A DNA stretch of 64,000 nucleotides, from positions 190 to 64,189 of the forward strand of contig CAMOQF010000002.1 in assembly GCA_946622645.1 (NCBI GenBank), given 5' to 3'. Of this stretch, positions 32,126 to 60,990 are shown piece after piece; the first letter of the stretch is position 1, and each line of letters begins with the position of its first letter. This stretch comes from an uncultured Blautia sp. (lineage in GTDB: Bacteria; Bacillota; Clostridia; Lachnospirales; Lachnospiraceae). The notes under the pieces were generated by a model. It saw only the letters and a program-made list of their open reading frames with translations, did no database searches and was not told where the DNA came from. The translations under genes were made by a program, and so were the position numbers.

Positions 32126-32890
32126 ATGATCAAACCAGTCTATGTAAGAAATATGGAGATCGGCACGGGGATCCCGAAGATCTGTGTGCCGCTGACCGGG
32201 AAGAACGATGCGGAGCTGCTGAGCCAGGCCGCCGGGGTCGTGGAAGGCGAAGCCGATTTTGTGGAATGGCGTGTGGACTGCTGGGAGGAGGAACACCCGA
32301 TCTACCGGGTTGAGGAGATGCTTTTTGCCCTCCGTAAGATCCTGCATGAAATGCCGATCCTGCTCACCTTCCGTTCGGAGGAGGAAGGGGGAGAAAGAGC
32401 TGCTTCCCCTGCGGAGCAGGTCGCGCTCATCCGCCGGGCAGCCGACAGCGGACAGCTGGACATGGCGGATGTGGAATACCTGCGCTCTCCGGATGAATTT
32501 GCTCCGCTGATCAGAGACATGGAGGAGAGAGGCGTACGGATCATCGCATCCTCCCATGATTTTGAAAAAACCGGCACGCGGGAAGAGCTGTGTGACAGGC
32601 TGCGGGCTCTGTCTTCTTCCGGCGCCGATATCATAAAGCTTGCCGTGATGCCCGCCTGTCCGGAGGACGTCACCCTTCTGATGGATACGGTGTCCGAAAT
32701 GACAAAGGAAGAGATCACCTGTCCGGTGATCGCCATGTCCATGGGAGAGCTTGGAGCAGAGAGCCGCGTGGAAGGAGAAAAATATGGATCTTCGGTCACA
32801 TTCGGAACCGCGGGAGCATCATCTGCACCGGGGCAGCTGCCCGTCCGGGTCCTTCGTGAAAAGCTGGAAACACTGCACGCCCGGATCTGA
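32126..32890 (+). CDS. aroD: Type I 3-dehydroquinate dehydratase
   Basis: PKICVPL, EWRVD, TFRSEEEGG, SSHDF, KLAVMP, MSMG, SAPGQ; start placed at ATG 32126. Confidence 0.95.
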   Translation: MIKPVYVRNMEIGTGIPKICVPLTGKNDAELLSQAAGVVEGEADFVEWRVDCWEEEHPIYRVEEMLFALRKILHEMPILLTFRSEEEGGERAASPAEQVALIRRAADSGQLDMADVEYLRSPDEFAPLIRDMEERGVRIIASSHDFEKTGTREELCDRLRALSSSGADIIKLAVMPACPEDVTLLMDTVSEMTKEEITCPVIAMSMGELGAESRVEGEKYGSSVTFGTAGASSAPGQLPVRVLREKLETLHARI

Positions 32891-32901
32891 TCTCCGCCGG
32901 A

Positions 32902-32995
32902 TCACGAAGGATCACGAAAGATCGCGAAGACTCACGAAGTTTCACGAATTTCCAGGATCACTCACGATTTTTCCACGAAGATTCACGAGAAAAAA
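32902..32995 (+). repeat. 10-bp-phased array of TCACGAA-like motifs upstream of the sigma factor gene
   Basis: TCACGAA at 32902, 32912, 32932, 32942; TCGCGAA 32922; TCACGAT 32962; CCACGAA 32973; TCACGAG 32983. Confidence 0.9.
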
Positions 32996-33017
32996 CAGGA
33001 AAAGTTTCTGACAGTTC

Positions 33018-33046
33018 CATACAAAATAAAACGTCTCCTGTATAAT
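33018..33046 (+). promoter_or_regulatory. Putative sigma-A promoter with perfect -10 and weak -35
   Basis: TATAAT at 33041-33046; the hexamer 17 bp upstream is CATACA (poor -35). Confidence 0.5.
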
Positions 33047-33148
33047 GTGGTGCAGGGCTCAGAAGACCGGATCATATGTCCCGCACATAGGCCGCGGTTC
33101 TTCCTGCCCGGACAACAAAGGTTGTCTTTCATCGGGGAGGTACAGGAG

Positions 33149-33751
33149 ATGAGAACAGATCGTCTGCCGGAGCCGCTCTCCAGGCAGCAGGAAGAGGGAC
33201 TGCTGTTCCTGATGCGGAAGAAGGGGAGTCGGGCAGCCCGGGAAAAACTGATCATCCATAATCTTCGCCTGGTCTATGCCATAGCCTGGGAATACGCCGG
33301 GATCCTTGAACTGGAAGACCTGGTTTCCTGCGGCGTCATCGGCCTGATCAAAGCGGTGGATGCGTACGATGGTTCCCGGAAGGCAGGGCTCGGAAGCTTT
33401 GCCGCGCGCTGCATCCGGAACGAGATCATCTCGGAGCTTCGCAGGATGAAAAGAAACGAGAGAGAAACGCTGGAGGCGATCACGCCGGAGCAGGAGATGA
33501 CGCTCTGGTCTCTGCACAGACATGAGCTGGATCCCCAGAGCATGATCGAAAGATCCGAAGAAAGAGAGGCGCTGTACAAAGCGCTGAAACATCTGGGGAG
33601 AGAGGACCGGCAGCTGCTGAAAAAGCGTTATCTTTCCGCTCAGAAGTGTTCTCAGCAGAAACTGGCGGAACAGACCGGACTTCATCAGTCCAGCATCGCC
33701 CGTCGGGAGATGCGTATTCTCGAAACGCTTCGCAGGCAGCTGCCTTCCTGA
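33149..33751 (+). CDS. Orphan sigma-E/sigma-K-like RNA polymerase sigma factor without pro-sequence
   Basis: LPEPLS, HNLRLVYAIA, EDLVSCGVIGLIKAVD, FAARCIRNEI, SQQKLAEQTGLHQSSIARRE match the sporulation sigE pattern; ATG 33149 follows GGAGG/AGGAG. Confidence 0.85.
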   Translation: MRTDRLPEPLSRQQEEGLLFLMRKKGSRAAREKLIIHNLRLVYAIAWEYAGILELEDLVSCGVIGLIKAVDAYDGSRKAGLGSFAARCIRNEIISELRRMKRNERETLEAITPEQEMTLWSLHRHELDPQSMIERSEEREALYKALKHLGREDRQLLKKRYLSAQKCSQQKLAEQTGLHQSSIARREMRILETLRRQLPS

Positions 33752-60101: not shown

Positions 60102-60185
60102 AGCGGCTTTCCGGACTGTCACGAATCCCTTGTACTGCGCGCATTTCGTAAGAAAACACACCGGTGGATTTCACGAAAATTCACG

Positions 60186-60218
60186 AGAAAAAAAGAGGCT
60201 TCCGGGCCTCTTTTTTCT
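60186..60218. terminator. Bidirectional rho-independent terminator after recN
   Basis: AGAAAAAAAGAGGC-TTCCGG-GCCTCTTTTTTCT. Confidence 0.75.
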
Positions 60219-60351
60219 TGCATTCTGTCATGAACGGTGCTAACAATGGATGCAGGGAGCGGCTTCTTTGGAAGGGAAAGACGCACGCTTCTTACGAGGC
60301 CTCGTATCGACAAAATCAACTGGTTCACGTATGACAGGAGGGGAGTTTCAT

Positions 60352-60990
60352 ATGAATAAGATCAATGTCGCTGTCGTCTCCGGACGGGAGCTGAAACCTG
60401 ATGACCTGCTGCTCCGGATGATCCGGGAGGACGGCTCGCTCTACTATGTGGGCACCGTTTCCAATGAGGATGAAGTGAAAAACCTGATGGAGCTCGATCC
60501 GCCCGACATGCTTCTGTTTTCTTCCATCGTACCGAAACTCTGGCGGCGCGACGGACGGCTGTTTTCCAGCGCGCAGAATCTGACCGGGACCCGCTACAGC
60601 ATCCCGGGGAGCGCGCTTCCGCTCCGCGAAGAAAACCTGGAGCTGATCGTCAGCAACATCCTGCACGAGCTGGGGGTGCCCACCCACATCAGCGGTTTCG
60701 GTTTTATCCGCGACGCCGTGATCCTGGCCGTCTATGACCAGGGGCAGCTGGGAAAGATCACGAAGGTCATGTATCCCACCATCGCAAAGAAGAACATGAC
60801 GACGCCCAGCAAGGTGGAACGGGCCATCCGCCATGCCATCGATCTGGCGTGGGAGAGAGGGAGCCTCAAGTATATCGACGAACTCTTCGGAAGCGATCTG
60901 CGGGACAAACGCATCAAACCTACCAATTCGGAATTCATCGCTTTGATCGCGGATAAGATCCGGATGGACTGGAAAAACAGGAAATATTAA
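60352..60990 (+). CDS. spo0A: Spo0A homolog with intact DNA-binding domain and degenerate, truncated receiver
   Basis: C-terminal LHELGVPTHISG, ITKVMYPTIAK, TTPSKVERAIRHAI and KPTNSEFIALIADK are Spo0A_C signatures; located at the canonical position after recN; 212 aa. Confidence 0.9.
   Translation: MNKINVAVVSGRELKPDDLLLRMIREDGSLYYVGTVSNEDEVKNLMELDPPDMLLFSSIVPKLWRRDGRLFSSAQNLTGTRYSIPGSALPLREENLELIVSNILHELGVPTHISGFGFIRDAVILAVYDQGQLGKITKVMYPTIAKKNMTTPSKVERAIRHAIDLAWERGSLKYIDELFGSDLRDKRIKPTNSEFIALIADKIRMDWKNRKY

Follow-up and report, generated by a model that had tools for sequence, protein, structure and literature searches.

Which regulator, if any, reads a row of short phased repeats in front of a sigma factor gene is the question raised by a 64,000-nt stretch of an uncultured Blautia sp. 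(contig CAMOQF010000002.1, positions 190 to 64,189 of the forward strand; hereafter the window, in whose numbering positions are given). The row consists of eight TCACGAA-like heptamers (32902-32989) lying between aroD and a gene for a SigE/SigK-like sigma factor. To the explanation that we prefer, which is drawn from sequence comparison, we give roughly even chances: the heptamers would form a lineage-specific, expanded operator of variant 0A boxes at the sigma promoter, bound cooperatively by a receiver-less Spo0A (here Spo0A') that is encoded in the same window.

The heptamer array

Direct reading and pattern searches place exact TCACGAA units at 32902, 32912, 32932 and 32942 and variant units at 32922 (TCGCGAA), 32962 (TCACGAT), 32973 (CCACGAA) and 32983 (TCACGAG), with unit-to-unit steps of 10, 10, 10, 10, 20, 11 and 10 bp, just as a first-pass annotation of the sequence had listed them. 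The 20-bp step is filled by CCAGGAT, a degenerate ninth slot that is in register with the array and that we do not count as a unit; with this slot the steps read 10, 10, 10, 10, (10, 10), 11 and 10 bp. The stretch 32899-32995 begins gga TCACGAA gga TCACGAA aga TCGCGAA gac TCACGAA gtt TCACGAA and continues ttt CCAGGAT cac TCACGAT tttt CCACGAA gat TCACGAG aaaaaa, that is, in the tandem layout of 0A boxes, with 3-bp linkers and a 10-bp repeat. The array is also non-coding, as the same annotation had stated, since it lies between the aroD stop (32890) and the sigma ATG (33149).

Such an arrangement is far beyond chance. Tandem Repeats Finder reports a period-10 array at 32899-32948; the 88 bp holding eight units at no more than one mismatch are unique in the window, where at most three such units per 100 bp occur elsewhere; and the pattern TSWCGAA-N4-SWCGAR has three matches in the 64-kb window against 0.13 expected, all of them in the array or at a second site at 60171. 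The suggestion that all copies sit on about one face of the helix holds for neighbouring units and fails for the two ends of the array, which are on different faces because the 10.0-bp repeat is slightly under-wound relative to B-DNA: against a helical turn of 10.5 bp it drifts by about 17 degrees per unit, or about 100 degrees across 81 bp.

Two other classes of site were considered and rejected: a cluster of DnaA boxes, for which only unit 8 (TTTTCCACG) is DnaA-box-like, and parS, of which unit 5 fits one half-site only (GTTTCACG). An inverted TCACGAA at 32853, inside aroD, lacks conservation in the close relative described below, and we take it as a chance occurrence.

Conservation of units and linkers

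The runs in which the window sequence was found are gut metagenomes of cattle, goat and sheep. In seven rumen metagenomes, contigs carry the array with the same copy number and without any indel, differing in or next to it at three positions only (32893, 32931 and 32935), although these contigs belong to the same species and are a weak test of copy-number stability. A close relative (L126; 86% AroD and 85% sigma identity), found through its aroD homolog, likewise has an aroD-sigma spacer of 258 bp, which aligns without gaps and retains all nine slots, so that the array is conserved in a close relative; contig L001 of this relative ends at the -10 hexamer and does not cover the array.

In the comparison with L126, the eight heptamer cores are identical at 52/56 positions (93%) and the linkers at 17/25 (68%), while the third codon positions of the flanking genes are 72-74% identical; the difference is significant between cores and linkers (Fisher p = 0.006) and between cores and all other array positions (p = 0.0004). 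As the linkers are near the third-codon level and the cores well above them, the comparison indicates that the heptamers are under purifying selection and the linkers close to neutral. This core-over-linker conservation is, at the level of sequence, the opposite of what a minisatellite homogenised by slippage displays, and neither copy-number variation nor homogeneous units and linkers were found. The preference of the first-pass annotation for selected sites over simple slippage is borne out by these comparisons.

A second site upstream of spo0A'

Tandem pairs of the unit occur at only one other place in the 64 kb, 27 kb from the array, where TCACGAA-aat-TCACGAG (60171) precedes the spo0A' promoter; one further TCACGAA lies upstream of the pair at 60119. 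The pair and its A-tract match the proximal end of the array (CCACGAA-gat-TCACGAG-A6) at 22/24 positions. The recN terminator hairpin lies between these boxes and the spo0A' -35 hexamer, which places the boxes within the transcribed 3' end of the recN mRNA. The two genes in front of which the units stand correspond to known classes of Spo0A targets, namely spo0A itself and early sporulation sigma operons.

The register to the core promoter is shared as well. In nine promoters (six of sigma genes and three of spo0A'; the register in L129 and L132 was counted by hand from the sequences), 51-53 nt separate the end of the proximal direct unit from the -10 hexamer, and this distance is 53 nt in every promoter of the more distant relatives. 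A scan of metagenomes for the shared 21-mer, YCACGAA-N3-TCACGAGAAAA, gave 34 matches, about the number expected by chance and none from this species, and thus added no further members to a regulon. Canonical TGTCGAA has eight matches in the window, which is the chance level, none of them near either promoter.

At both promoters of the window TGCAGGG follows 4 nt past the -10 hexamer (TATAAT gtgg TGCAGGG, 33051-33057; TAACAA tgga TGCAGGG, 60251-60257), and it likewise follows the sigma promoter of L126. It could be a shared start-site or leader element, or the trace of gene conversion between the two promoters.

Orthologous promoters in more distant relatives

In more distant relatives, the gene orders aroD-sigma-paaK-ACT and argR-recN-spo0A'-glgA-recA are syntenic, and in one of them (Genome B) both loci are on a single 84.5-kb contig. 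Its sigma promoter (L127) reads TCTCGAA aaa CCTCGAA aaa GCTCGAA, 14 nt, ATTCGACA ggg TTCGACA, 21 nt, TATAAT, and thus comprises three phased direct units and two perfect inverted 0A boxes (TGTCGAA), the proximal one of which provides a -35-like TCGACA; its spo0A' promoter (L121) carries GCTCGAA aaa TCTCGAA aaa GCTCGAA. The L132 sigma promoter has the layout of L127, with GCTCGAT as last direct unit and TACAAT as -10. L128 has TGTCGAT-tct-GCTCGAA and one inverted TGTCGAA, L129 has CCTCGGA-tct-TCCCGAG together with inverted TGTCGAA and TGTCGAT, and the spo0A' promoter of L125 reads AGTCGAA aaa CCTCGGA aaa CGTCGTA. Over about 57 kb of the relatives' loci, a permissive form of the tandem pattern occurs nearly only at the sigma and spo0A' promoters, with one exception (in L125).

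The TCGACA hexamer stands 21 nt upstream of the -10 hexamer in L127, L128, L129 and L132, so that these four promoters have the hexamer spacing of about 21-22 bp and the 0A box over the -35 that mark the spoIIG type. This architecture gives the relatives' sigma promoters the appearance of spoIIG-type promoters that depend on Spo0A. The corresponding hexamer of the window and L126, CTGACA, stands 27 nt from the -10 and has no 0A box over it. The window array occupies exactly the place of the relatives' direct boxes. It differs from them in four respects: the units number eight and not two or three, their third base is A, their second base is C without exception, and a canonical -35 box is absent. 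The coordinates of the window features are collected in Table 1.

Table 1. Coordinates of the array, the second site and the associated genes and promoters in the window.
Feature	Position	Strand	Remarks
Distal block of five heptamers at exact 10-bp steps (TCACGAA, TCACGAA, TCGCGAA, TCACGAA, TCACGAA)	32902-32948	+	All five slots kept in L126
Degenerate ninth slot CCAGGAT (slot six in order), in register, filling the 20-bp step	32952-32958	+	CCGCTGA in L126, 2/7 identical
Proximal block, TCACGAT, CCACGAA, TCACGAG, steps of 11 and 10 bp	32962-32989	+	Ends 51 nt before the -10 hexamer; all three units identical in L126
A6 tract directly behind the last unit	32990-32995	+	Direct reading; counterpart A7 at 60188-60194 before spo0A'
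Core-promoter block of the sigma gene, from CTGACA (33008-33013) via TATAAT to the likely start region	33008-33052	+	43/45 identical to L126
-10 hexamer TATAAT of the sigma promoter	33041-33046	+	TATAAT or TACAAT in L126, L127, L128, L129, L132
Regulated gene, 200-aa SigE/SigK-like sigma-70 family factor without pro-sequence	33149-33751	+	Ribosome-binding site GGGGAGG at 33134-33140
Tandem pair TCACGAA-aat-TCACGAG, followed by A7	60171-60187	+	Between recN stop and spo0A' promoter; ends 53 nt before the spo0A' -10
recN terminator hairpin GAGGC-TTCCGG-GCCTC, flanked by A7 and T6, bidirectional form	60195-60210 (with flanks 60188-60216)	.	Between tandem site and spo0A' promoter; kept in L121, L125
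spo0A' promoter, TTGCAT and TAACAA	60218-60223 and 60241-60246	+	Conserved in L121, L125
spo0A', 212 aa, candidate binder with intact C-terminal DNA-binding domain and degenerate receiver	60352-60990	+	Pfam, alignment
aroD, type I 3-dehydroquinate dehydratase (197 bits), upstream gene	32126-32890	+	Profile search

Relation of the unit to the 0A box

The 0A box is TGTCGAA, first written TGNCGAA (PMC4690370), and Spo0A makes base-specific contacts to G2, C4 and G5, where single changes cost about 10-fold in affinity, as does the change G2A (PMC3485338). Degenerate boxes are nevertheless used by legitimate early-sporulation targets, including spoIIG (PMC3485338). The Spo0A footprint spans two imperfect boxes 3 bp apart (PMC2731898), in keeping with the statement in the first-pass annotation that Spo0A binds tandem boxes spaced by about 10 bp.

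A position profile was built from 34 direct units, 18 of them from the window lineage. Positions 4 (C) and 5 (G) are invariant, position 6 is A in 30/34, the window lineage has A or G at position 3 where the others have T (once C), and position 2 is C in 31 units and G in three. TCACGAA fits TGNCGAA at 6/7 positions and TGTCGAA at 5/7: C4, G5, A6 and A7 are kept, and the contacted G2 is C in 18/18 units of the lineage. G-type boxes (TGTCGAT, AGTCGAA) are present among the direct units of the relatives' arrays.

A receiver-less Spo0A

The genome encodes a Spo0A with an intact DNA-binding domain. Spo0A' matches the Pfam family Spo0A_C with 124.8 bits and has no Response_reg match, and its residues 92-208 align to the structures PDB 1LQ1 and 1FC3. 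In the alignment, the remnant of the receiver has SG for the DD motif, serine for the acceptor D56, and three internal deletions, so that it does not have what activation through phosphorylation of a receiver aspartate requires. Should Spo0A' be the protein that binds the array, it would be an atypical regulator of constitutive form. Three more proteins of 212 aa (67-69% identity) have the same receiver-less form, and the nearest full-length Spo0A proteins are from Lachnospiraceae. The gene is in its ancestral position behind recN; spoIVB, which usually lies between recN and spo0A, is absent there.

The recognition helix, SKVERAIRHAI, is canonical save for lysine at the position of B. subtilis Arg211, a residue described as a backbone contact (PMC13577027). 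An altered base specificity of Spo0A' was considered and is unsupported, since this is the only change in the helix. Since the helix gives no hint of a changed base preference, the best view of the units is that each is a weak box by itself. Spo0A' would be expected to bind without phosphorylation, because its DNA-binding domain is canonical and its receiver does not work; the isolated DNA-binding domain of Spo0A does bind its targets without phosphorylation, and both spo0A and spoIIG are among the targets of Spo0A (PMC3485338).

Spo0A is the textbook example of a phosphorylation-gated master regulator, and spo0A is normally lost along with sporulation. Of 1358 gut Firmicutes genomes, only 15 retain spo0A together with a low sporulation score (PMC8340488), and our literature searches brought up neither an account of a receiver-less Spo0A nor one of TCACGAA repeats.

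The sigma gene and its promoter

With the NCBIfam models of SigK and SigE the sigma factor reaches 114 bits each, far below their cutoffs (252 and 339, respectively), and in the alignment it has no counterpart to the first 24-26 residues of SigE, so that it has no SigE/SigK pro-sequence. By score and by the absent pro-sequence, it is not SigE or SigK proper. Among 5.8 billion proteins only one relative exceeds 39% identity, and a look-up of the exact protein found no record. Divergence of the sigma gene is very rapid: the closest relative shares 85% identity with it, and syntenic orthologs are down to 33-36% where AroD still keeps 51-62%. Orthologs lie at 2736-3338 in L126, 6937-7554 in L127 and 4931-5551 in L128; the gene is inverted in a more distant relative (L134) and absent in another (L130).

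The promoter has a TATAAT at 33041 with a poor -35, as had been noted before: there is no TTGACA-like hexamer 16-18 bp upstream, the sole one being CTGACA, and a standard sigma-70 promoter scan gave no match. The same holds for the relatives, as TATAAT (TACAAT in L132) is kept in all six sigma promoters that we read, always without a -35 at normal spacing, the TCGACA of L127, L128, L129 and L132 included, which is compatible with the activator-type promoter proposed by the first-pass annotation.

Within the 5' leader, which is poorly kept (53/81 identical to L126), GCCCGGACAACAaAGGtTGT at 33113-33130 is conserved and can fold as a small hairpin (GACAAC/GTTGTC) just ahead of the ribosome-binding site.

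Two contigs from rumen metatranscriptomes, X2 (32761-33170) and X22 (32845-32995), run from the 3' end of aroD through the array at a depth of 2-3; X2 continues into the sigma gene, which is covered in three RNA runs at similarly low depth. These contigs reflect either read-through from aroD or carry-over of DNA in the libraries.

A proposed Spo0A' operator and its alternatives

In our proposal, the array serves the sigma-A-type promoter of a SigE/SigK-derived sigma gene. Spo0A' would bind it without phosphorylation and without receiver-mediated dimerisation; each unit, lacking the G2 contact, would be weak by itself, so that occupancy would depend on cooperative head-to-tail loading. Protein bound at the proximal units (about -64 to -90, the last at about -64 to -70) may then help the sigma-A RNA polymerase where the promoter itself offers no usable -35, and the tandem site before spo0A' would close an autoregulatory loop. 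The greater number of units may compensate for the lost -35 boxes and the lost dimerisation. We infer Spo0A as the binder, its cooperativity, and activation rather than repression; for this last point the arguments are the analogy with spoIIG and the missing -35, and nothing else. In support of Spo0A, perfect inverted TGTCGAA boxes stand beside two or three phased (G/C)TCGAA units in the relatives, and the same units precede spo0A. The first-pass reading of selected, phased sites for an activator, probably Spo0A, is on sequence grounds largely supported, with the caveat that the box is non-canonical at a contacted base.

Several observations weigh against this proposal. The replacement of G2 by C in every unit of the lineage is uniform enough that, as far as sequences tell, C2 looks selected and not merely tolerated, and the recognition helix has no change at a base contact that would explain such a preference. 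The window lineage has lost the canonical inverted -35 boxes, so that a spoIIG-like mechanism cannot apply unchanged. The coverage of the array by RNA contigs points to possible read-through from aroD. In each genome, the likeness between the two sites extends over 24-29 nt and includes the linkers, and gene conversion between the two promoters, instead of a shared factor, could have caused the parallel change. Finally, the known sites are two, within the 64 kb of genome in hand.

The serious alternative, precisely as C2 looks selected, is that the units are the operator of another protein with a preference for C-(A/T)-CGAA, for example a different response regulator or a ribbon-helix-helix protein polymerising on phased repeats, and that Spo0A' acts only on the inverted TGTCGAA boxes. 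Two site classes are suggested by the C at position 2 in 31/34 direct units against G in the inverted boxes of the same promoters, and the window lineage kept and expanded the C-type units while losing the G-type boxes. On the other hand, G-type and C-type units alternate within one phased array in L128 (TGTCGAT-tct-GCTCGAA) and in L125 (AGTCGAA-aaa-CCTCGGA-aaa-CGTCGTA), which speaks for a single class; no regulator gene is syntenic with either locus; and the invariant positions coincide with the Spo0A contacts C4 and G5. We therefore hold this explanation to be possible but doubtful.

A structural role, as intrinsically bent DNA, an UP-element-like feature or a landing pad for a nucleoid protein, would accord with the 10-bp periodicity, the A-rich tail, the high AT skew and the local G+C content of 37-44% (56% in the window), but it is the C and G of the core that are conserved and not the A/T-rich linkers, and most units have no A-tracts, which makes it very improbable. 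We find a role at the RNA level hardly credible, in which the repeats, read through from aroD, would be phased sites for a TRAP-like RNA-binding protein controlling the sigma cistron. The two metatranscriptome contigs span the end of aroD and the array, and no terminator-like site was found on the + strand between the aroD stop and the array; however, the depth of these contigs is low enough for DNA carry-over, the array has no RNA structure signal (z = 0.19), an Rfam scan of 32700-33300 gave no relevant match, the orthologs have boxes in either orientation at a constant distance from direct units to the -10, both of them properties of DNA-level sites, and the spo0A' site lies upstream of a terminator. 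A neutral 10-bp minisatellite without sequence-specific role can practically be dismissed, for although Tandem Repeats Finder reports a period-10 repeat and TCACGAA arrays of this period at more than 119 mostly intergenic loci of many phyla suggest that such repeats arise readily, there is no copy-number variation in the seven samples and no indel relative to L126 despite about 27% silent-site divergence, the cores are kept far above linkers that differ between units and so betray no homogenisation, the register to the -10 is conserved, and a second promoter carries the same site.

Returning to the Spo0A' operator, its context is what makes the array most interesting: a receiver-less Spo0A and a pro-less SigE/SigK-like sigma factor in a rumen clade. 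This small clade keeps a receiver-less Spo0A at the recN-spo0A position together with a fast-evolving sigma gene whose promoter has a Spo0A-box architecture, and the box sequence has changed in step at both promoters. We would suggest only tentatively, and with less than even confidence, that a clade of uncultured, Lachnospiraceae-like rumen bacteria kept a stripped-down remnant of the sporulation switch (an unphosphorylatable Spo0A and a pro-less SigE/SigK-derived sigma) as a free-standing two-gene circuit, in which both promoters saw a parallel drift of the operator from (G/C)TCGAA to CACGAA, the -35 boxes were lost, and the array expanded from two or three to eight units in compensation. 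If true, nature would here offer a case in which operator and promoter were rewired around a constitutive master regulator. If Spo0A' does bind, the re-use of a developmental circuit after loss of its signal input, the replacement of receiver-driven dimerisation by many weak phased sites, and the evolution of operator sequence and copy number over short distances would all become testable; if it does not, what is left is a clean and conserved operator of many sites whose protein is yet to be found.

Comparison with known operators

Like the sigma gene of the window and its relatives, spoIIG of B. subtilis (the pro-sigma-E operon activated by Spo0A~P) encodes a SigE-type sigma factor, and is transcribed from a sigma-A-type promoter in which a good -10 is combined with a -35-like hexamer at too great a distance, as in L127, L128, L129 and L132 (21 nt). 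Satola, Moran and Spiegelman reportedly placed the two spoIIG elements 22 bp apart, with boxes over the -35. In the relatives, too, 0A boxes overlap the -35 and more boxes lie upstream, and the spoIIG boxes are themselves weak and degenerate (PMC3485338, citing Baldus 1994). The window differs in having no canonical -35 box, eight upstream direct units instead of one upstream pair, a core of TCACGAA instead of TGTCGAA, no spoIIGA, a sigma factor without pro-sequence and a regulator that cannot be phosphorylated.

The abrB promoter and promoter A2c of phages phi29 and Nf share with the window 7-bp boxes 3 bp apart in a 10-bp head-to-tail repeat, and their tandem boxes are occupied by a Spo0A dimer that protects 25-30 bp (PMC2731898; crystal complex 1LQ1). 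There, however, the boxes are pairs that overlap the core promoter and repress it, whereas the window has five plus three units at about -64 to -151.

Spo0A-type boxes upstream of spo0A, as in the window, are also known from the autoregulation of spo0A in B. subtilis (Pv/Ps) and C. difficile. In the latter, a consensus box precedes the spo0A start codon by 75 bp (PMC3485338), and B. subtilis spo0A has several boxes with attractive interactions between occupied ones (PMC12090719). In contrast to these, the window pair is upstream of the recN terminator and its promoter is sigma-A-like without a sigma-H element; the net effect of the boxes in B. subtilis is mainly repressive.

Short near-helical repeats that allow cooperative binding of weakly binding proteins are also found in the CtsR heptad repeats, the heptads of omega from pSM19035, the ParR-parC iterons and the Tor boxes. 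The window cores are unrelated to these phased-repeat operators and no gene for such a protein is nearby; the omega heptads are contiguous with a 7-bp period, whereas those of the window share CGAA and the overall layout with 0A boxes.

TCACGAA repeats in other genomes

A genome-wide scan for three phased TCACGAA units gave more than 119 loci, with none from this organism among the matches listed. These period-10 loci (L002-L120; TCACGAA was the one motif scanned) are from Acidobacteriota, Bacteroidota, Planctomycetota, Chloroflexota, Actinomycetota and other phyla, examples being L061 (6164), L066 (1582), L070 (772), L095 (3652) and L055 (4784). Of the 119 listed, 104 are outside long open reading frames; many of the arrays are followed by an inverted TTCGTG array, and several genomes have two to five copies of nearly the same element. 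No common neighbouring gene or gene family was found among the listed loci, and these heterogeneous loci of other phyla say nothing about the window array.

A rumen metagenome-assembled genome of Acetatifactor sp. has seven phased units of the TGTCAC(G/A)AA type (L029, 5142-5260) just upstream of a promoter-like TGTGATATGAT. They sit between an open reading frame of 1046 aa and small genes resembling MobC and a CHC2-type primase (N-termini compared by eye), and could represent an oriT or iteron-like site belonging to a mobile element; the site is unrelated to the window locus.

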